Program-made: the position numbers and the translations under genes | The notes under the pieces: model-generated | What the model saw: only the letters and a program-made list of their open reading frames with translations | Database searches by the model: none | Told to the model about the DNA's origin: nothing | Shown: positions 3,746-14,329 of the stretch, in pieces | How positions within the stretch are numbered: the stretch's first letter is position 1 | Layout of the letters: every line of letters starts with the position of its first letter | DNA from: a virus | UHGV virus genome: UHGV-0175648 | Reading direction: 5' to 3' (one strand) | Length of the DNA stretch: 23,613 bases

Positions 3746-3945
3746 ACAAAAAGACCTGGTTTCGCGCATATATGTGGGCGCTGGTATGCGTCCTCGTCTC
3801 TCTCATTCTGTATGCAGGACTACTCCCCCGAATGATTTCATCAGACAGCTCCTTCCTGGTATTGCTGGGCATTTTCATTGCCATGCTGTACCCGGCAGGC
3901 GTTGTTCGCCTTTTCAGTAAGTACATCAAGGAAATCAAACAATGA
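3742..3945 (+). CDS. Small inner-membrane protein with two predicted TM helices (67 aa)
   Basis: Two hydrophobic stretches (WALVCVLVSLILYAGLL and FLVLLGIFIAMLYPAGVV). It is translationally coupled to the downstream SPFH gene. Confidence 0.6.
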   Translation: MNKKTWFRAYMWALVCVLVSLILYAGLLPRMISSDSSFLVLLGIFIAMLYPAGVVRLFSKYIKEIKQ

Positions 3946-4772
3946 AGAAATTCAAACTCTTTCAGATTCTCCCGCTTTTTGCCGCCATCCTGCTGGTTGG
4001 CTGCGATCGCGTTGAGCCAGGTAATGTGGGCATCAAAGTCAACAAGCTGGGCGACGACAAAGGCGTTGGCGAAGTGGTTGGCGTTGGCCGCTACTGGACT
4101 GGCTGGAATACCGAGGTTTACATCTTCCCGACCTTCAAACAAATGAAGACCTACGATGACCCGTTCAGCTTCCAGATGAGTGACGGCACAACCATCGGCT
4201 ATCACATCGGCGTGGCCTACAAGGTCGATCCATCCAAAGTTACCACAGTGTTTCAGACCTACCGCAAAGGCGTGGATGACATTACCGACACTGACCTGCG
4301 CCAGAAGATCGCCGACGCACTCAACCGACTGGCCAGCAAAATGACCACAGATAAATTCATCGACGGTGGCAAGTCTGAACTGCTGGATTCAGCACTTAAA
4401 GATATTCAGGAAGAGATGACCCCCATCGGCATTCAGGTCATGAGCCTCTCTTATGTCGGTAAACCGGAATATCCGCCAACCGTTATCGACAGCATTAACG
4501 CCAAAGTCACGGCAAACCAGAAGACCCTGCAACGCGAACAGGAAGTCAAGCAACGCGAAGCAGAAGCCAACATGTTGCGCGCAGAAGCTGCCGGACAGGC
4601 TGATGCCATTCGCACAAAAGCCCAGGCTGAAGCCGACGCCATTCGTTTACGCGGTGAAGCTCTGCGCCAGAATCCCGGCGTTATGGAGCTGGAAGCAATC
4701 AACAAATGGAACGGCACGCTACCGCAATACATGACCAGCAATACCGCTGTTCCGTTTGTTCCGGTGAAGTAA
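3942..4772 (+). CDS. SPFH/band-7 (stomatin/prohibitin/HflK-C-like) lipoprotein, predicted inner-membrane retained
   Basis: Lipoprotein signal with lipobox LLVGC followed by Asp at +2 (CDRVEPG), which is an inner-membrane retention signal in E. coli. An SPFH-like core is followed by an Ala/Glu/Gln/Arg-rich coiled-coil tail (QREQEVKQREAEANMLRAEAAGQADAIRTKAQAEADAIRLRGEALRQ). The ribosome-binding site is AAGGAAA. Confidence 0.8.
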   Translation: MKKFKLFQILPLFAAILLVGCDRVEPGNVGIKVNKLGDDKGVGEVVGVGRYWTGWNTEVYIFPTFKQMKTYDDPFSFQMSDGTTIGYHIGVAYKVDPSKVTTVFQTYRKGVDDITDTDLRQKIADALNRLASKMTTDKFIDGGKSELLDSALKDIQEEMTPIGIQVMSLSYVGKPEYPPTVIDSINAKVTANQKTLQREQEVKQREAEANMLRAEAAGQADAIRTKAQAEADAIRLRGEALRQNPGVMELEAINKWNGTLPQYMTSNTAVPFVPVK

Positions 4773-4803: not shown

Positions 4804-4934
4804 AGCAGTATCAGGATTTTTTAGTATGCCGTTCTCACAAAAAAACCGCTTGCCATGCCGCAATCAGTCAGGTTACATTTCCGCTGCACCTCATAAAACG
4901 GGTGCCGGGTTTCGCAGCCTGCTGACTACAAGAG

Positions 4935-4964
4935 CGCACAACCGCGCCAGCGGTTTTTTTGTGC
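4935..4964 (+). terminator. Rho-independent terminator-like hairpin with a T7 run
   Basis: CGCACAACCGCGCCAGCGGTTTTTTTGTGCG: the ACCGC/GCGGT stem is followed by seven T, and the outer arms CGCACAA/TTGTGCG are also complementary. Confidence 0.55.
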
Positions 4965-5139
4965 GTACTGTATTGCCACGTTTTTTTCGCGTCAGAATTA
5001 TGGCGGGGCGTACGGGGCCGACTTCGGTCGGGCCGGGATCTCTTGTAGCCGGTACTGCGAACCTCGTACGTCTCGCCACCCACAGTTTCGCAGCTCTGGA
5101 TGGTGAGTTTTCACAACTTACTACAAGAGGCCACATATC

Positions 5140-5370
5140 ATGGCAAACCGCAAACAGCACCGCACTATCGCGGAGCGTCGTCACATCCAGACTGAAATCA
5201 ACCGCAGACTTTCCCGCGCATTCCGCGTCGCTAAAATCATGCACATCAATATGCTGCATGAGCGTAGCTGCGAACTTTCAAACCTCTATTCATCCGCTGT
5301 TTTCAGCTATCTGGCGGATGATCTGCGCGAGCTTCAACAGCTCATCCAGCAGCAAAACAAACTCCATTAA
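5140..5370 (+). CDS. Hypothetical small basic protein (76 aa)
   Basis: ORF with an AAGAGG Shine-Dalgarno about 10 nt upstream. The N-terminus is Arg/Lys rich. No recognisable domain. Confidence 0.5.
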   Translation: MANRKQHRTIAERRHIQTEINRRLSRAFRVAKIMHINMLHERSCELSNLYSSAVFSYLADDLRELQQLIQQQNKLH

Positions 5371-5442
5371 TTCCTGTTCCGGGCCTTTCCTGCACCTTGC
5401 GGCGGGAGGCCTTCGCACATCTGTAACAAGAGGATTGCCGCA

Positions 5443-5808
5443 ATGATTCTCGCCAACGACTTTCTTGAATACCTGCTCAACACAGAACGTGATCTTGCCG
5501 CTCGCGTGCGTGATCGTTATGACATGTACCTGAAATCCCTGCCTGTACCGCAGCTCGCTGACGGAAAGATTGTTATTGATGGTCGCTACATGATTGACAG
5601 CCACGAGGGAAATTACAGGCTTTACCGCATTGAAGGTGGTACTCCGTCCGTTATTGGCATTTACCAGCGCCCATCCTCTGCAATCGTCGATGTGATTGCC
5701 GACAGCATCCGCATCACACATCGCCATGCCGACACAGAAGACACCGTGCTGGAAATTCAGCGGCTGGCTACAGTCTGCCGCGACACCCTGAATGGCATGA
5801 CGAAGTAA
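5443..5808 (+). CDS. Hypothetical protein (121 aa) immediately upstream of gene A
   Basis: ORF with an AAGAGGA Shine-Dalgarno 8 nt upstream. It occupies the position of P2 B/orf80-83; no P2 B-like sequence was recognised. Confidence 0.55.
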   Translation: MILANDFLEYLLNTERDLAARVRDRYDMYLKSLPVPQLADGKIVIDGRYMIDSHEGNYRLYRIEGGTPSVIGIYQRPSSAIVDVIADSIRITHRHADTEDTVLEIQRLATVCRDTLNGMTK

Positions 5809-5814
5809 ATCACT

Positions 5815-8637
5815 ATGACGGCAGAGTACATCAGGGACTGGCAACAACCGCGCCACGCAGTGGGGCGTGAAGGAACGGGGATCCCCGCTCCTGAATCCGC
5901 GCTTTCCTCCTGGCTGGATGCCTACCGGGCAGAGAACGAGCGCCGCCAGGAAATGGCTGATGCGGCGTTCTCCGCCACGCCGCTGGGCAACCTGATTAAT
6001 AAAAGCCTGGATGCACAGGAAAAACAGGACAAAACCATCACACTGGCAGGAGACGCCAGAAAACAGGCACGCGGCGCGGTGGATGAAGCCATGGCCTCGC
6101 TGCGCCTGCTGCCGTCCTATCTGCGCGATCCGCTTATTCGCCACCTCTCCTTCCTGCGCAAAAAACAGGAAGCCGATCGCCGGAAAGGCAAAAAGAGCTG
6201 GCAGGCTGAACGCTACGCGTGCGGAACCCTGCGCAAAATATTCGAACGTCTGGACCGCACCGACCACCACTGGCTGACACCGGCTTATCGCTCCCTTGCC
6301 GGACGCGAACGCCTGGATGATTTGCTTTACCTGCCGCAGCTCAACAAACACCAGATACAGACGCTGGCCACCATGACAGCGGCGATGTTCAGCAGCACCT
6401 TCGAAAAACTCTGCGATGGCTTTGGCGCGACTGATGGCGAGCTGACCATGGATGTAACGCTGAAGGCGTATCAGATGCTGGCCCGCATGGCGTTACACCT
6501 GCACGCCATGCCTCCGCATTATGACGCACTGACAACAGACAAAGACCGGAGGAACGAACCAGACACAGAACTGCTACCGGGCGCAATCCTTCGCCTGACC
6601 TGTGCGGAATGGTGGAAACGCAAACTGTGGCTGTTACGTTGCGAGTGGAGAGAAGAACAACTCCGCGCCGCCTGTCTGGTTTCCAGAAAAACATCGCCCT
6701 ATCTGAGCCAGGACGCGTTAAGCGAGTTTCGCGCACAGCGCGAGAAAACACGCGATTTCCTGAAAAGTTTCATGCTGGAAAATGAAGACGGGTTCACGAT
6801 TGATCTCGAGACGGTGTATTACGCGGGAGTAAGTAACCCGGTTCACCGTAAGGCAGAAATGATGGCCACCATGAAGGGACTGGAACTTCTGGCCGAAGCC
6901 CGTGGCGACAGAGCGGTGTTTCTGACCGTCACCTGCCCGTCAAAATACCACGCAACAACGGAGAACGGTCATCCGAACCCCAAATGGAACGGGGCCACCA
7001 TGCGCGACTCCAGCGATTACCTGGTTAACACGTTTTTTGCGGCGGTCCGCAAAAAACTGAACCGCGACGGCCTGCGCTGGTATGGCATCCGCACGGTGGA
7101 GCCTCACCATGACGGCACTGTGCACTGGCATATGATGGTCTTTGCACATCCGGACGAGATTGAAACCATCGTGTCCCACGTCTGCGATATTGCCATTCAG
7201 GAGGACCGCCACGAGCTGGGCGATGACATAACTCCGCGTTTTAAGGCGGAGTATGTCGACGGCTCAAAAGGCACACCAACCAGCTACATCGCCACCTACA
7301 TCGGAAAGAACCTGGACAGCCGCGCCGTGGATGGCATCGACCCGAAAACGGGCAAGCCACGCGTTGACCACGAAACCGGAAAATCAATGGCCGAGAGCGT
7401 GGAGCGCGCCATCGGTTGGGCACGCCTTCACCGGGTCCGCCAGTTCCAGTTCTTTGGCATCCCCTCCCGTCAGGTGTGGCGTGAACTCCGCCGCCTTGCC
7501 AGCCAGATGGCGCGCAACCCGGAAGGCCCGCAACGGCTGAAGGATGACGCAATGGATGCGGTACTCGCTGCCGCTGATGCCGGATGTTTTGCCACCTACA
7601 TAGAGAAACAGGGCGGCGTACTTGTTCCACGCAAAGACTACCTGATTCGTACCGCCTACGACCTCGCCGATGAGCTGAACGATTACGGCGAACAGAGCGT
7701 ACAGATTTACGGGATCTGGTCACCACTCATCGGGGAATCCTCCCGTGTGTGCACGCATCCGGATAACTGGAAGCTGGTAAGACGCAAACCGGAAGCGGAA
7801 GACAGCGCCCGCGAAAATGGTTTTGACCTTCAGGGCGGCCCTGCCGCCCCTTGGACTCGTGGCAATAACTGTCCCCGTGTACAGGAAACGAACAACAACG
7901 GGACAGAACAGCCGGAAGAACGGCCAGCACCGTGGCCGCAGCTCCCTGACGGCGTTGAAGTGAATGAATGGATGCGCTCACTGAAACGGCACGAACGCCG
8001 GGCGCTGATGCGTTCGCTGCGTGACAAACAGGCAAAAAACAGCAGTGATGAAATGCAGAGCTGGACACAGAGCCGCAAACAGCAGCGGCCTTTGCCTGAT
8101 AACCACGAATTACTCGCTAAAGAATGGCGGGAGTCTGCTGAATCTCTCGGCCTGCATATCGGTGAACAGCAGATGCAGCACCTGTTACGGGGCGGCAGTC
8201 TGTACGTTGACGGCAGCATCATTGCACCGCAGGGATTTGAAATTGTACGCAAACCGGATACCCGACCGGACAGCCGGATCACGCAGCTCTGGCAGCGCCT
8301 GAGCCGTAACCACGGCGTAAGCAGCACGGAGATCCGCCATAACCCGGTCGCCAGCTATCTGGAACAGCTGGGGGCATCAGACCCCGAAGCCGCCGCACGC
8401 CTGGCATCCACACTTCAGCAGGACCAGAACACCATGAAAACACCCGTTACCGTGCTTTCTGACATGCTGCGCGCCATCCGCGACGCAGAGCACGCACAGA
8501 GAATCAGTGAAACCACTGAACGCGCCCGCCGCAAAGCAGACCTGCTGCGGGGTGGCCTGACCAGTGGAAACAAAAAACAGACAGAAACGGGATTCACAAA
8601 TCCCGTAAATGAGCAAAAAACGCGCCGCGATATATGA
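5815..8637 (+). CDS. A: P2 gpA-family rolling-circle replication initiation endonuclease (940 aa)
   Basis: Contains the HUH-type metal-binding motif (EPHHDGTVHWHMMVF) and a catalytic tyrosine region (SYIATYIGKN) typical of P2/186 A proteins. It lies in the expected position after the early genes. The C-terminal roughly 300 aa is charged, low-complexity sequence. Confidence 0.92.
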   Translation: MTAEYIRDWQQPRHAVGREGTGIPAPESALSSWLDAYRAENERRQEMADAAFSATPLGNLINKSLDAQEKQDKTITLAGDARKQARGAVDEAMASLRLLPSYLRDPLIRHLSFLRKKQEADRRKGKKSWQAERYACGTLRKIFERLDRTDHHWLTPAYRSLAGRERLDDLLYLPQLNKHQIQTLATMTAAMFSSTFEKLCDGFGATDGELTMDVTLKAYQMLARMALHLHAMPPHYDALTTDKDRRNEPDTELLPGAILRLTCAEWWKRKLWLLRCEWREEQLRAACLVSRKTSPYLSQDALSEFRAQREKTRDFLKSFMLENEDGFTIDLETVYYAGVSNPVHRKAEMMATMKGLELLAEARGDRAVFLTVTCPSKYHATTENGHPNPKWNGATMRDSSDYLVNTFFAAVRKKLNRDGLRWYGIRTVEPHHDGTVHWHMMVFAHPDEIETIVSHVCDIAIQEDRHELGDDITPRFKAEYVDGSKGTPTSYIATYIGKNLDSRAVDGIDPKTGKPRVDHETGKSMAESVERAIGWARLHRVRQFQFFGIPSRQVWRELRRLASQMARNPEGPQRLKDDAMDAVLAAADAGCFATYIEKQGGVLVPRKDYLIRTAYDLADELNDYGEQSVQIYGIWSPLIGESSRVCTHPDNWKLVRRKPEAEDSARENGFDLQGGPAAPWTRGNNCPRVQETNNNGTEQPEERPAPWPQLPDGVEVNEWMRSLKRHERRALMRSLRDKQAKNSSDEMQSWTQSRKQQRPLPDNHELLAKEWRESAESLGLHIGEQQMQHLLRGGSLYVDGSIIAPQGFEIVRKPDTRPDSRITQLWQRLSRNHGVSSTEIRHNPVASYLEQLGASDPEAAARLASTLQQDQNTMKTPVTVLSDMLRAIRDAEHAQRISETTERARRKADLLRGGLTSGNKKQTETGFTNPVNEQKTRRDI

Positions 8638-8682
8638 AGCGCGCATAAAACAGGCAAAAACGGGATTTCAGAATCCCGTAAA
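8585..8682. promoter_or_regulatory. parC-like centromere/operator: two 25-bp direct repeats, each internally palindromic
   Basis: AAACGGGATTCACAAATCCCGTAAA at 8585-8609 and AAACGGGATTTCAGAATCCCGTAAA at 8658-8682, each containing ACGGGATT...AATCCCGT dyad symmetry. They sit immediately upstream of parM; the first lies inside the 3' end of gene A. Confidence 0.6.
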
Positions 8683-8713
8683 CGATTAATTAATCAACAT
8701 AAGGAAAAGCGAC

Positions 8714-9673
8714 ATGAAAATTTGTATCGATGACGGCTCCACCAACATCAAGCTGGCATGGACTGAGAACGGCGAACGCCGCAACGCCATCAGCCCGAAC
8801 AGCTTCAAGTCGGAATGGTCTGCGCCGTTCGGTGGCACGCAGCCCGCGAACTACATGCTTGATGGCGTGCGCTATGGTTTTGATCCGGTCAGCGATCGCT
8901 TTGTCCAGACGACCGACACGCAATACCAGTACAGCGATGTGAATGTCATTGCCATTCATCACGCGCTGGTCAAATCAGGCATCACACCACAGGAAGTGGA
9001 TGTGGTTGTCACCCTGCCACTGAGCGAGTATTTCGACACAAACGCACAGCCGGACATGGCCAACATCAACCGCAAAAAAGCAAACGTCATGCGCCCGGTG
9101 GCGTACCAGAACGGAAAAGCATTCACTATCCGTAACGTACGGGTTATGCCTGAATCCATTCCGGCTGGTTTTAAAGCACTGGCTGACATGAGTCCGTTTG
9201 AATCCCTGCTGATTGTGGATTTAGGCGGAACCACGCTGGATGTGGCAAAGGTTCAGGGGCAACTGGCAGGTATCAGCCAGGTGTTTTGCGATCCACACGT
9301 AGGCGTTTCTCTGATGGCCAATGCCGTACTGTCGGTGATGGCCACTAACGGTATGCGCACCAGTCACCACATCGCCAATACCATTATCGAACATCGCCAT
9401 GATGAAGCCTGGCTGCGCCAGCACATCCACAATGACGCGCATTACGCCAGCCTGATGGCGGTTATTCGTGAAAAGGAAGAAACACTGAAACAACGCGTGA
9501 TCCGCGCGCTGGCGGGTTTTTCGGGTTACGGGCGGGTGATGGTTGTCGGTGGCGGGGCGGAGATTGTGGCACCCGCTATCCGCGAAGCCTGCGGAGTTAA
9601 TGCGACTTTCATCGCGGACGGGGTGCCACAGTTTGCTCTGGTTAATGGGCTGTACGCAATGGACAAGGAGTAA
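8714..9673 (+). CDS. parM: ParM/StbA-family actin-like partition ATPase
   Basis: 319 aa with strong similarity along the whole length to plasmid R1 ParM / R100 StbA as I recall it (MKICIDDGSTNIKLAW..., YSDVNVIAIHHAL, VMPESIPAG, LIVDLGGTTLD, GVSLM, VVGGGAE, LVNGLY). The ribosome-binding site is AAGGA. Confidence 0.85.
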   Translation: MKICIDDGSTNIKLAWTENGERRNAISPNSFKSEWSAPFGGTQPANYMLDGVRYGFDPVSDRFVQTTDTQYQYSDVNVIAIHHALVKSGITPQEVDVVVTLPLSEYFDTNAQPDMANINRKKANVMRPVAYQNGKAFTIRNVRVMPESIPAGFKALADMSPFESLLIVDLGGTTLDVAKVQGQLAGISQVFCDPHVGVSLMANAVLSVMATNGMRTSHHIANTIIEHRHDEAWLRQHIHNDAHYASLMAVIREKEETLKQRVIRALAGFSGYGRVMVVGGGAEIVAPAIREACGVNATFIADGVPQFALVNGLYAMDKE

Positions 9674-9677
9674 ACCA

Positions 9678-9989
9678 ATGACGACACCAACCAGACGGAT
9701 AAGTTTCTATCTGAAGCCCGCCGCCGTCAAGAACGAAGGCGAAGCATGCGCCTGGCTGGACAGCCTTACACCAGAAGCCCGCAAAAGCGGCCAACGCGTG
9801 GCTTTTCTGGCCGGGCTGGCACTACTGAAAATGAATCCGGCAGAGGCTTACCGACTGGCTGCATGGGTTGATGATGAGGCGTTATCAGTGACACAAACCA
9901 GAACAGAACGCCCCGCGTCACAGCCAGTATCAGCCGCACAGATAACCAGTCAGATGGCCGGAAATATCCGGGCGTTATTTCCCGAATAA
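9678..9989 (+). CDS. parR: ParR/StbB-like centromere-binding adaptor (103 aa)
   Basis: Immediately downstream of parM with an AAGGAG ribosome-binding site. The N-terminus parallels R1 ParR (RRISFYLKPAAV...WLDSLTPEARKSGQRVAFLAGLAL versus RRTIAFKLNPDV...TLDSIPQGERSRLNRAALTAGLAL, from memory). Confidence 0.72.
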   Translation: MTTPTRRISFYLKPAAVKNEGEACAWLDSLTPEARKSGQRVAFLAGLALLKMNPAEAYRLAAWVDDEALSVTQTRTERPASQPVSAAQITSQMAGNIRALFPE

Positions 9990-9994
9990 CACAA

Positions 9995-10018
9995 CATCAG
10001 GGCGCATCCGCCCTGATG
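9995..10018 (+). terminator. Stem-loop after parR (10-bp stem CATCAGGGCG/CGCCCTGATG, 4-nt loop)
   Basis: Perfect inverted repeat read directly from the sequence. The downstream T-tract is weak, so it may be a partial terminator or an operator. Confidence 0.4.
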
Positions 10019-10052
10019 ACTTTAACCCGGGAGCATAAACAAGGGGGACACA

Positions 10053-10385
10053 ATGGAACACATTGACAGAGAAAAAGCGCAGCGACTGATTGAGCGGATG
10101 GAAGCGCTGGCGAAAGAAGAAAATGTCAACATCCAAAAAATAGCTGAATGTGGCCAGATAGTTCTTCGTCGTGAAAAAGATCTCAAACAACTGATGTCTG
10201 GCGAAACCAGCAAAACATGGACTTCAGGCGAGAAGACGGTTTATTGCAGTTTCTGCAATAAATCCCAGTACGAAGTCACAAAGGTGATTGCCGGACCGTC
10301 TGTTTACATCTGCAATGAGTGCGTGGATTTGTGCAATGAAATTATCAGGAGAGAAGTGACAGACAAAAAGGAAAAAAACGCATGA
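10053..10385 (+). CDS. Small protein with a C-terminal ClpX-type C4 zinc-binding domain (ZBD)
   Basis: Residues about 63-99 ([40 protein letters not shown]) are near-identical to the E. coli ClpX N-terminal zinc-binding domain as I recall it ([40 protein letters not shown]), with the same Cys spacing. The N-terminal 60 aa is unrelated and predicted helical. The ribosome-binding site is AAGGGGGA. Confidence 0.85.
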
Positions 10386-11531: not shown

Positions 11532-12578
11532 TCAGGATGTGGGCTGGGTATCTAACAGTGCGTAAGGGTTAAAGCGGATCACCTCTTCGCCAAGCCAGTC
11601 ATTGATGTGCTTCATGGCCTCCATGACGGGCATCAGCTCGTTAATTGCGTAAACCCGCGCGGCCTTCTCCACATCACCAAACGCACTTTTTTCACCCGGC
11701 ATCGCCCCCATCAGTTGCGGCGGAACGCGGTGCGCAGCCAGCACATCATCACGGGATGCCGCCTTAACATTCATGAACTCATCCTTTGCGGTGATCTGCT
11801 GGAACGGCAAAATTTGCACCCCCTCTTTGCCCCCGTTGGGCGCATGAATGAGCACGTTTTTAAACGCACCGCCACCACGTGCACCCTGTAGCGTTTCTTT
11901 CAGGGAGTCCATGCTTTCGCGGTTTACCTGCGCTGCACCGATGTAGATGATGCACCCGGCGTGGGATCCGTTGTCGTAATACAGTTTTCTGAACATGTCC
12001 GCCGAATGAGACAGGCTGGCCGAGAGTAATGCGCCGAGATATTCCGGCATGCCGTAGATTTCCTGGTTAATGTCAGGATTCATCAGGTGGCACACTTTGC
12101 CAGGGCGAAACTGGAACGCATCCTTGCCATCCTGCACATACCACCATGATTCAAGATCGCTACCGCGTCGCATGTATTTTGCCAGGGCGTGCCGTAATTT
12201 AAGCGGTTCGCCGAGCATATTGCTTCGAAGCTCAAGGAATGCGTTACCGAACACAAACCAGTCCAGCGCCAGCGCCGAGAAATCCTGCCGGGAAAGCAGC
12301 GGGTGCGGGATGTAGCAACCGAGTAATACATTGCGCTTAAAGTAAAGCGCAGACTGATGCCAGGACGTTTGTCGGGCAGCTCTTGCCAGACCGTACCAGT
12401 CCACCGGGGTTTCATACCACCGCCCGTTATCAGCACAGTACATATTGTCCAGCAGGTCATGCCCGGTCAGGCGATAAGGACCATCAAATGTGAATGCACT
12501 GAGCGACGATTCTTTCCTGAGCGCATCAGCGAGATCAATGCGTGAACCCATGCGCACTTTTTTATTTTTTCTGCTCAT
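11532..12578 (-). CDS. Q: Portal (capsid portal vertex) protein
   Basis: 348 aa; the size, position and sequence are consistent with P2 gpQ. It is adjacent to and co-oriented with terminase large subunit P. Confidence 0.9.
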   Translation of the reverse strand: MSRKNKKVRMGSRIDLADALRKESSLSAFTFDGPYRLTGHDLLDNMYCADNGRWYETPVDWYGLARAARQTSWHQSALYFKRNVLLGCYIPHPLLSRQDFSALALDWFVFGNAFLELRSNMLGEPLKLRHALAKYMRRGSDLESWWYVQDGKDAFQFRPGKVCHLMNPDINQEIYGMPEYLGALLSASLSHSADMFRKLYYDNGSHAGCIIYIGAAQVNRESMDSLKETLQGARGGGAFKNVLIHAPNGGKEGVQILPFQQITAKDEFMNVKAASRDDVLAAHRVPPQLMGAMPGEKSAFGDVEKAARVYAINELMPVMEAMKHINDWLGEEVIRFNPYALLDTQPTS

Positions 12579-14329
12579 CAGAACTCCATAACCGTGAAAC
12601 GCTCGTTTTCTCCTTCGCCGCCAATCGGTTCGTTAATGACAGCAAGCATGGTCGCCCACGCAAGGTCGCCGTGGCTGATCCCCCTCGCGCGGTCCGTTTC
12701 GTAAGTGATAAAGCCGCCCGGTGTTTTCACCTTACGCACGGCGTTAAAGGCCGCGACCAGTTCGCGTTCGGCGCGATCGTATTCCCACCGCCCGGCACGC
12801 ATTATTTGCAGCATTTTCAGTACCAGCGACCGTTTTGATGACAGCGTGAAGGTGTACGGAATAGCAGCAGGGAAAAACCGTTTCACTATCTGATAAACAG
12901 CCTCCCCGTTCCCGCCCGTCACATCAATGCCGATGTGTTCCACGTTGTAGCGACACGTGAACTCTTCAATGACTCTGGCCTGTTCTTCAAACTCCAGCCC
13001 CTGAACGCGTCGCGTCTCCACCGTTCGAAAACGGCCACCAGGAACAGCCGGAGGAACCACCACGGACACAGCGCCGCTGTCGCCGTTGCCACTGCTGCCG
13101 TTTGCGTCATACCCAATCCATACCGGACGATTCCCCATCGGGCGGGGAGCAAAAGGTTTCCAGTCTTTCCAGTCGTCGTATCCGTCAACACCGCAGCCAA
13201 TCAGGATATTCAGGTTAAATGCCGATTCCCCTTCGCGGACAAACTCACACATATAGAGATTGAGGAACTCGTCTTCGGTGTTTTCATCACGAATTTCGTC
13301 GATATCGGTGTGTTTCCAGCCGTGTTTAACCACATCTTCCAGCGTGACAATTTGCCGCCACGTCCGGTCAGGGCAGATAAGCCCGTTATGCAGCGTTTTC
13401 CAGTCCACAGAAAAACGCTGGCGTTTATGCGAGGCCTTTTTCTCGTTCCAGCGGTCGCCGTTCCAGTAGGCGTATGCCTCGTGCGTTTCGGTGGATGGCG
13501 TGGAGAAGTAGGTGCGCCGCAGTCCGCTGAGGGTTGCCATAGCGCCAGCCACCTTGCGCAGTTCAGCAAAGCGACTGACCCAGAAGAATTCATCAAAATA
13601 AAAATTGCCCGTATAGGACTGTGCCGACGCAGCAGAAGTGCCGAGAAAATGCAGCTCTGCGCCGTTGGAGAGGATGATTTTATCGCCCCCTTTCAGCTCC
13701 ACATCAACTTCAGCCGCGGCCTTCTGAATAATGCTTTTAAACTGGAACGCCTGACGACGCGACGCAGACAAAAAAATCTGGTTACGCTGATAAGGTTGCA
13801 CCACATCGTCACGCAGCGCCATCAGCAGTGCTTCCTGTGCAAAATACCAGGTCGCCCCAATCTGTCGGGATTTCAGGATCATCCTGTTACGTATCCCGGC
13901 TTCCCTGCAAAGGGTCAGGGAGTCAAACCAGCCCCGCTGATGCCACTCCAGCCTGCTGATGATTTTTTCCCGCAGTGCGGCAATCTGTTCCGGCGTGAAA
14001 TGATTTTTGAGTTTTTTCGCCCGGCCTTTCTTTCCTGCGGCCATCACATCCGGCTGGCCATCATGCAGCTTTTTAAGCTGCCGTGTCAGCAGGTCTATTT
14101 CCTTGAAGTCACCGCCTGTTTTATTCTGTTTTTCAGTAAGCTGGATGAGGCGCGCATCAATGGATTGCGTGACACGCTGCACGGGTGGCGTTTCATCCCA
14201 CTGGTCGCGTTTTTTCCACGCATAAATCGTGTTCGGGTTTATTCCCATCAGACGTGATATTTCTGCGGGCGGATAACCCTGCCAGTAAAGTTGTCGCGCA
14301 CGCTGGCGCACAAAAGCGTCCTGAATCAT
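12578..14329 (-). CDS. P: Terminase large (ATPase) subunit
   Basis: 583 aa; the N-terminus (MIQDAFVRQRARQLYWQGYPPAEISRLMGINPNTIYAWKKRDQWDE) and size are typical of P2 gpP. It is divergent from O, as in P2. Confidence 0.92.
   Translation of the reverse strand: MIQDAFVRQRARQLYWQGYPPAEISRLMGINPNTIYAWKKRDQWDETPPVQRVTQSIDARLIQLTEKQNKTGGDFKEIDLLTRQLKKLHDGQPDVMAAGKKGRAKKLKNHFTPEQIAALREKIISRLEWHQRGWFDSLTLCREAGIRNRMILKSRQIGATWYFAQEALLMALRDDVVQPYQRNQIFLSASRRQAFQFKSIIQKAAAEVDVELKGGDKIILSNGAELHFLGTSAASAQSYTGNFYFDEFFWVSRFAELRKVAGAMATLSGLRRTYFSTPSTETHEAYAYWNGDRWNEKKASHKRQRFSVDWKTLHNGLICPDRTWRQIVTLEDVVKHGWKHTDIDEIRDENTEDEFLNLYMCEFVREGESAFNLNILIGCGVDGYDDWKDWKPFAPRPMGNRPVWIGYDANGSSGNGDSGAVSVVVPPAVPGGRFRTVETRRVQGLEFEEQARVIEEFTCRYNVEHIGIDVTGGNGEAVYQIVKRFFPAAIPYTFTLSSKRSLVLKMLQIMRAGRWEYDRAERELVAAFNAVRKVKTPGGFITYETDRARGISHGDLAWATMLAVINEPIGGEGENERFTVMEF

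Follow-up and report, generated by a model that had tools for sequence, protein, structure and literature searches.

Actin-type (type II) partition systems are found in low-copy plasmids such as R1 and R100, and systems of related design are also present in elements that normally reside in a chromosome. The SrpMRC system of SXT/R391 elements stabilizes the excised, rolling-circle (relaxase)-replicating form of the element, and is switched on only when the element is activated (Carraro et al. 2015, PMC4489591). In the Corynebacterium glutamicum prophage CGP3, AlpC and AlpA are early induced genes, and the circular phage DNA requires them in order to replicate efficiently (Donovan et al. 2015, PMC4446434). 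Rousset et al. (2022) noted that roughly one P2-like phage in four has a putative partitioning system, and a paper on phage phiSM lists the gene as a "fitness" factor (PMC6456863). A literature search revealed no functional study of this cassette. Here we analyze the copy found in a 23,613-nucleotide stretch of UHGV virus genome UHGV-0175648 (the window), in which a parM gene and a parR gene (together, parMR) directly follow replication gene A of a P2-family prophage.

The type II partition operon is a near-fixed part of the replication module in P88-like (Xuanwuvirus) phages, and its two predicted products constitute a genuine, orthodox type II (ParM/ParR) pair. Our preferred reading, to which we assign a probability of about 0.5, is that parMR segregates or positions the transient circular genome that the gene A protein (gpA) replicates after infection or excision. 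The cassette occupies the A-to-Q interval, which is the site of tin/old in P2, and its G+C content is that of the phage.

The parM gene (8714-9673, + strand) encodes an actin-like partition ATPase of 319 aa. The protein matches the Pfam models StbA_N (PF06406, 6.9e-82) and ParM C-terminal domain (PF21523, 2.5e-68), with profile scores of 273.5 and 229.6 bits against cut-offs of 24.6 and 27.4. It aligns at full length with the crystallized ParM of plasmid R1 (PDB 1mwk, E 1.1e-92, residues 2-316), is 47% identical over its whole length to ParM of R100, and belongs to PHROG 691, named "partition protein". A first-pass annotation, made from the letters of the window alone, had called this gene a ParM/StbA-like ATPase and the following one a ParR-like adaptor. 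The full-length matches bear out the first of these assignments, and the profile and structure-database searches place the protein in the ParM family above curated thresholds.

The nucleotide-binding motifs of ParM, aligned to those of R1, are intact: IDDGSTNIK (phosphate 1), MPES, DLGGTT (phosphate 2) and GGGAE (adenosine). E147, within MPES, lies opposite the catalytic glutamate E148 of R1 ParM, and D169, within DLGGTT, lies opposite D170. Both R1 residues have a role in ATP hydrolysis. Values of dN/dS for parM range from 0.02 to 0.19 in all 21 pairs compared, which indicates that the gene is under strong purifying selection. Apart from copies of the same prophage, the closest plasmid ParM proteins in a set of 72,556 plasmid records are 52-53% identical.

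The parR gene (9678-9989, + strand) starts 4 nt beyond the parM stop codon and encodes an StbB-type adaptor of 103 aa. The assignment as a ParR-like adaptor is upheld by a match to Pfam Plasmid_stab_B (PF10784, 1.7e-24; 85.8 bits against a cut-off of 25) and by the position of this small gene directly after parM. PHROG 2515, also a family named "partition protein", matches residues 1-103 of 103, and the N-terminal 62 residues are 32% identical to ParR/StbB of R100. A mechanical listing of open reading frames (ORFs) starts the gene at TTG 9543; we rejected this start, as homologues are 101-107 aa long, start at the position of ATG 9678 and begin with MTTPTRRISFYLKP. A sequence search of the PDB with ParR returned nothing at E 1 or better. 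An AlphaFold2 model of the ParR monomer has a mean pLDDT of 55, with the N-terminus, in which a ribbon-helix-helix dimer fold would be expected, modelled as a low-confidence helix.

ParR is composed of a conserved N-terminal part of 63 residues, a hypervariable linker (residues 64-95) and a conserved C-terminal motif, NI(R/Q)xxFP, of which N96, I97, F101 and P102 are invariant across 18 alleles. The C-terminus, GNIRALFPE, resembles that of R100 ParR (KKNAMKLIN) and that of an IncFII plasmid ParR (RKNVQHLFP; RKNVQHLFPDDE), and the pattern K/R-N-[IVA]-x-x-[LF] is present at the C-termini of the two plasmid proteins. In the structure of R1 ParM with a ParR peptide, it is the C-terminal segment of ParR that contacts ParM. 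Six nucleotides past the parR stop codon lies a perfect 10-bp inverted repeat, CATCAGGGCG/CGCCCTGATG (9995-10018). Homology with several relatives ends at about 9990-10015, and the inverted repeat marks the right edge of the conserved module and may be the end of its transcript.

The cassette is tied to one lineage of gene A. The 940-aa product of this gene (5815-8637, + strand; Pfam Phage_GPA, 1.7e-129, residues 179-503) is about 42% identical to the next nearest A proteins of the P2 family, and the homology stops near residue 800. Beyond this point lies a lineage-specific C-terminal tail of about 140 aa (residues ~801-940; 8215-8637, + strand). The last 200 aa of A are found only in 14 phage records, all of which also carry parMR. 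In a set of 5426 complete E. coli genomes, the A tail occurs at 1528 places and parM at 1443, a co-occurrence of 94%. With dN/dS values of 0.06-0.30, the tail itself is under purifying selection, and it is possible that it is functionally coupled to ParMR.

Every phage relative examined has the same order A-parM-parR, and what follows parR varies. The window and P88 have a ClpX zinc-finger ORF there, phiSM encodes a membrane protein, EDL933 has IS3, and further relatives have other genes. Therefore, the variable hotspot proper starts after parR, and parMR is not freely exchanged hotspot cargo. One locus (L001, 4001-4700, in the E. coli CUVET19-1704 chromosome) is a rare recombinant that has the same A tail and, in the place of parMR, a frameshifted ead/Ea22-like gene.

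The first-pass annotation knew of no described P2 family member with this cassette. That statement does not hold: the existence of the cassette is already known, as it is common, annotated and noted in print. Fourteen deposited phage records, those of P88 and of 13 further Xuanwuvirus phages, contain the 1.7-kb region at 95-99% identity, and the carriers include P884B11, phiSM (of Citrobacter rodentium), 520873, 503458, Chuche, PhiR44_2, 569R5 and 705R2. The survey of P2-like prophages that the same annotation had proposed thus finds the same cassette at the same A-Q position in relatives. Among the complete E. coli genomes, 1303 of 5426 contain parM, including O157:H7 EDL933, the enteropathogenic strain E2348/69 and ST131. 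RefSeq names the products "plasmid segregation protein ParM" and "partition protein" or "plasmid partitioning/stability family protein". The EDL933 copy resides in prophage CP-933T, in which IS3 is inserted beside the cassette and a tail gene is frameshifted; a search for expression data of this copy led to papers that mention the prophage, and the supplementary text covered has no entry for the parM or parR locus tags. A 226-kb contig labelled Vagococcus sp. WN89Y (L006, NZ_JBQPOM010000071.1) also carries the cassette, at 97% identity, and is most likely an assembly contamination or a mislabelling.

It is very improbable that the cassette is a decaying, functionless relic of recombination with a plasmid. 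Damaged copies do exist: ParM of phage 503458 is in four pieces, ParR occurs as fragments, a frameshift variant (P0079) was found, and about 6% of loci with this A tail have no parM. Nevertheless, the low dN/dS of parM, the intact catalytic motifs, and the conserved N- and C-terminal motifs of ParR all speak against decay, and the cassette is kept at 94% of loci across Escherichia, Citrobacter and Salmonella. ParR homologues are also named from Cronobacter and Hafnia.

Because the A-Q interval is a hotspot for anti-phage systems (PMC9122126), the cassette might instead be cargo directed at other elements, for example through centromere-based incompatibility, or by interfering with superinfecting relatives or with resident plasmids and phage-plasmids. 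Its position in this interval is one point in favor of such a role, and the pattern of variation in parR is another. ParR alleles range from 95% down to about 50% identity in the center of the protein, beside ParM sequences that are 94-99% identical at the DNA level, and such divergence can accompany conflict. The variation is limited to residues 64-95 (9867-9962, + strand), which is the linker and neither the DNA-binding N-terminus nor the C-terminal motif. The DNA-binding N-terminus is invariant among the relatives retrieved by a word-seeded protein search. Matches to O157 and ST131 genomes stop near window position 9732, which places recombination breakpoints in the first ~20 codons of parR. 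Neither ParM nor ParR matches a PADLOC defence model at E 0.01 or better, and the cassette, unlike the swapped cargo beside it, is a fixed feature of a single gene A lineage. In addition, no ParR match at E 1e-3 or better was found among PLSDB plasmids except for copies of the same prophage, so no target that shares the centromere is visible. We consider a role against other elements quite unlikely.

The cassette could also support a stable life as a low-copy plasmid-prophage, instead of or alternating with integration, as was suggested by Rousset et al. (2022). The first-pass annotation had likewise listed an episomal lifestyle among the possible roles. However, 1441 of the 1443 parM places in the complete E. 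coli genomes are chromosomal. Only six of the 72,556 plasmid records carry ParM at 98% identity or more, and only one of these is phage-sized, even though about 24% of E. coli genomes contain the phage; the five others are 228 kb-1.4 Mb in size. The phage-sized record (NZ_CP148288.1, pZ1323PEC0009-2; L002/L012) is a complete circle of 34,461 bp from E. coli Z1323PEC0009 that comprises phage genes only, with no bacterial flanks. It could be a true episomal state, or an excised or induced genome that was closed by the assembler. A match to a 26.7-kb Shigella boydii "plasmid" proved uninformative; the record is a linear fragment of a degraded prophage.

Other observations that bear on a plasmid state are mixed. 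Among deposited phages, the nearest ParM outside the P2 group is that of the plasmid prophage D6 (48% identity), and a hok/mok-type toxin locus lies beside ogr in most P88-like phages. This Hok/Gef (MokW-like) locus is at 1291-1431 of L012, outside the window, and L012 also encodes a DNA methyltransferase with a Com-type regulator. We rejected hok/mok as a marker of plasmid life, as the same locus is equally common in integrative lambdoid Stx phages. Furthermore, the integrase is kept, and no replication protein other than the rolling-circle protein gpA was found. Stable plasmid lysogeny is contradicted because nearly all copies are chromosomal and phage-sized plasmid records are nearly absent, and we regard it as unlikely.

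Two palindromes directly upstream of parM are candidates for the centromere, parC. Each is a perfect 20-bp palindrome of the form 8-N4-8, ACGGGATT-N4-AATCCCGT, and the two centers are 73 bp apart. The first, ACGGGATTCACAAATCCCGT (8587-8606), is situated in repeat unit 1 (8571-8612; putative parC half 1) within the gene A frame, and falls in the last 17 codons before the A stop at 8637. The second, ACGGGATTTCAGAATCCCGT (8660-8679), is situated in repeat unit 2 (8644-8685; putative parC half 2), in the 76-nt spacer between A and parM. The two units are direct repeats of 42 nt that are 81% identical to each other. The first-pass annotation had described two palindromic repeats of 25 bp upstream of parM, arranged like a parC centromere. 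Two repeats are indeed present, and directly upstream of parM; the palindromes are 20 bp rather than 25 bp long, the first lies inside gene A, and the likeness to parC is diminished by there being two sites only, which are no better conserved than their flanks.

Even when three mismatches are allowed, the window has just two occurrences of the pattern, compared with 0.14 expected, and none of 100 shuffled sequences gave two or more. No extra half-sites were found near the palindromes, and no other repeat family was found within 8400-10100. The possibility of hidden R1-like iterons was examined through the helical phasing of AAAC; the result was not significant (P = 0.15), and this statistic did not pick up the R100 positive control either. 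A scan of genome contigs for diverged relatives, in which ParR and the palindromes might have changed together, retrieved three loci, all at least 97% identical. In 12 relatives, 7 of 32 columns in the palindrome arms are variable, compared with 28 of 131 in the flanks (Fisher p = 1; the divergence is low, which leaves little power), and the changes in the arms are uncompensated. Position and repetition make it plausible that the palindromes are the parC centromere.

Alternatively, the palindromes might not be the centromere at all. They might act as RNA stem-loops that control how the A-parM transcript is processed, stabilized or translated, or as terminator-like hairpins for leftward transcription, with the true ParR site elsewhere or partly overlapping. 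Both palindromes score as terminator-like hairpins followed by T-runs on the minus strand, although there is no upstream minus-strand gene to terminate, and a separate terminator-like site (11201-11183) belongs to the leftward Q-P operon. RNA of the region 8560-8720 folds far better than shuffled sequences (minimum free energy -37 kcal/mol, z = -4.76), with the two copies pairing across the A stop codon; strong folding is, however, automatic when two copies of a palindrome are present. The lack of excess conservation or compensation in the arms fits such a role, as does the recombinant locus without parMR described above (L001). This locus retains copy 1 in a slightly degenerate form, with one mismatch in an arm (ACGGGACTCACGAATCCCGT), and its breakpoint is just past the A stop. 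In contrast, the location directly upstream of parM is that of the ParR site in R1/R100 and of srpC in SXT (PMC4489591), and no other repeat family lies around the cassette. Overall, a function other than that of a centromere is possible but doubtful.

The near-identical palindromes would allow a transcript to fold in two ways, as a pair of local hairpins or as a long-range duplex around the A stop codon. Such folding could affect expression of A or parM, or could be a trivial consequence of the repeat. A simple consensus scan found no sigma-70-like promoter between A and parM, where manual inspection revealed only hexamers with matches at 2-4 of 6 positions, and the same scan found no plus-strand terminator-like site in this spacer.

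Action of parMR on gpA-replicated circles is favored because the two genes are welded to the replicase gene, with no recognizable promoter or terminator between, and are under selection. Because ParM and ParR are an orthodox pair, the basic mechanism should be the established one of ParMRC systems. In a lysogen, the phage is integrated in the chromosome and partition would not be needed. The target would be the extrachromosomal circle that is replicated as a rolling circle by gene A after infection or excision. At this stage, parM and parR would be expressed by read-through from gene A, although we infer the timing. ParR would then bind the two palindromes at the end of A, if these are the centromere, and ATP-dependent ParM filaments captured by ParR would push sister circles apart. 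As a result, replicating genomes might be spread out, or be passed on to each daughter cell, up to the time of packaging or re-integration, which is the presumed benefit to the phage. Among the three roles offered by the first-pass annotation (an episomal lifestyle, segregation of replicating genomes after induction, or a co-opted filament system), the segregation role, for genomes that are replicating or excised, has the best support, which comes from analogy with SrpMRC and AlpC/AlpA.

Several points weigh against segregation of gpA-replicated circles. Lytic replication of the P2 type produces monomer circles in large numbers, and it is not evident what the phage would gain from pushing pairs of them apart at such a copy number. 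The candidate centromere consists of two sites only, one of which is inside a coding region, and its arms vary as much as the flanking bases. A consensus scan is also compatible with a weak or activator-dependent promoter for parMR. Lastly, paper searches turned up no experimental or expression evidence for the cassette.

A stronger form of this proposal is that a ParMRC-type system is both integral and necessary to an integrative rolling-circle phage, in which it either separates gpA circles or supports a heritable carrier or plasmid state alternating with integration, with a two-palindrome centromere in the end of the replicase gene and a coupled A tail. We put this forward tentatively, as an idea with less than even odds. 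If it is true, and as far as the searchable literature goes, no type II segrosome before it would have had a proven role in an integrative phage of Gram-negative bacteria.

The window covers the left two-thirds of the prophage, with the P2-family order of integrase, C-type repressor, Cox, gene A, parMR, portal Q and terminase P. The minus strand encodes a tyrosine integrase (1-1023) and a helix-turn-helix (C-type) repressor (1057-1374), which are followed by Cox (1386-1781) and a run of early plus-strand ORFs upstream of gene A. On the right are portal Q (11532-12578, minus strand) and terminase P (12578-14329, minus strand), with capsid and tail genes beyond. The tyrosine integrase, the repressor/Cox switch, the gpA rolling-circle replicase and Q/P in P2 order are those of an integrative member of the Peduoviridae, and the closest deposited phages are classified in this family, as Xuanwuvirus. 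The earlier description of an integrase-bearing P2-like prophage with the cassette directly after gene A is confirmed by this gene order.

Three neighboring features merit mention. To the right of parR, the cargo begins with a 110-aa ORF (10053-10385, + strand) that is shared with P88 (gp19) and in which only a ClpX-type C4 zinc finger is recognizable (Pfam zf-C4_ClpX, 5.8e-18). Its product matches the first ~50 residues of ClpX models, contains no AAA+ ATPase module and has no PADLOC match. Such a lone ClpX N-domain might compete with, or redirect, substrate recognition by host ClpX. In the early rightward region before gene A, a 276-aa SPFH/Band 7 protein (3942-4772, + strand; Pfam 7.5e-31; PHROG 200, "lipoprotein") is unusual content for a P2-type early operon. 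Finally, a plus-strand terminator-like hairpin and T-run with a good score (AACCGCGCCAGCGGTT TTTTTGTG, 4940-4955) is located within the ORF at 4826-5446, a 206-aa Ash-family frame from the mechanical listing. Either this ORF starts later than listed, or the early region comprises two transcription units.

The cassette is present in about one-fourth of complete E. coli genomes and is under purifying selection, in a phage that integrates. If our preferred reading is correct, parMR would have a bearing on prophage stability, spontaneous curing and the efficiency of induction. Action on the excised or infecting circle would extend to very common enterobacterial phages a principle demonstrated for SXT/R391 and one corynebacterial prophage, namely that integrative elements keep partition systems for a short extrachromosomal phase. 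The close linkage to gene A and the very small candidate centromere make the system easy to test.

The nearest systems to the one in the window are the other cassettes of P88 and Xuanwuvirus (in phiSM, 520873, PhiR44_2 and CP-933T), in which the same A tail, palindromes, parM and parR lie between A and Q with 95-99% nucleotide identity. The differences are allelic only, and concern the ParR linker and the cargo to the right of parR. Outside the P2 family, the only other match to this ParM among 50,697 phage records is StbA of D6, a P1-like plasmid prophage, whose own annotation reads "similar to phage P88 StbA protein". StbB of D6 was not retrieved by the window ParR in the word-seeded protein search, in which no direct comparison of the two was made. 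D6 is maintained as a plasmid, and its upstream region is about 270 bp long, AT-rich and has TCTCA-type repeats. The nearest plasmid relatives likewise have AT-rich, multi-repeat upstream regions, unlike the two palindromes of the window.

The ParMRC systems of R1 and R100 (parA/stb) share with the window the gene order of repeats, parM and parR. Their parC is an A/C-rich region of about 160 bp in which about ten 11-bp direct iterons surround a strong promoter (TTGACA), whereas the window has two 20-bp palindromes, one of them inside the upstream gene, and no recognizable promoter. The replicons also differ, as R1 and R100 are theta-replicating low-copy plasmids and the window belongs to an integrative rolling-circle phage.

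Prophage CGP3, too, is an integrated prophage that encodes an actin-like protein and a DNA-binding adaptor, with the adaptor site (alpS) upstream of the operon. It differs in its Gram-positive host and in the type of prophage, and the Alp family is very distant from the ParM and ParR of the window. The closest functional analogy is SrpMRC, a type II partition system in a normally integrated element. SrpM is distant from R1 ParM and SrpR has no recognizable homology to ParR, whereas the window proteins are clear members of the R1 family. SXT/R391 elements are conjugative and the function of their system is demonstrated, whereas the window represents a phage that is known here from its sequence.

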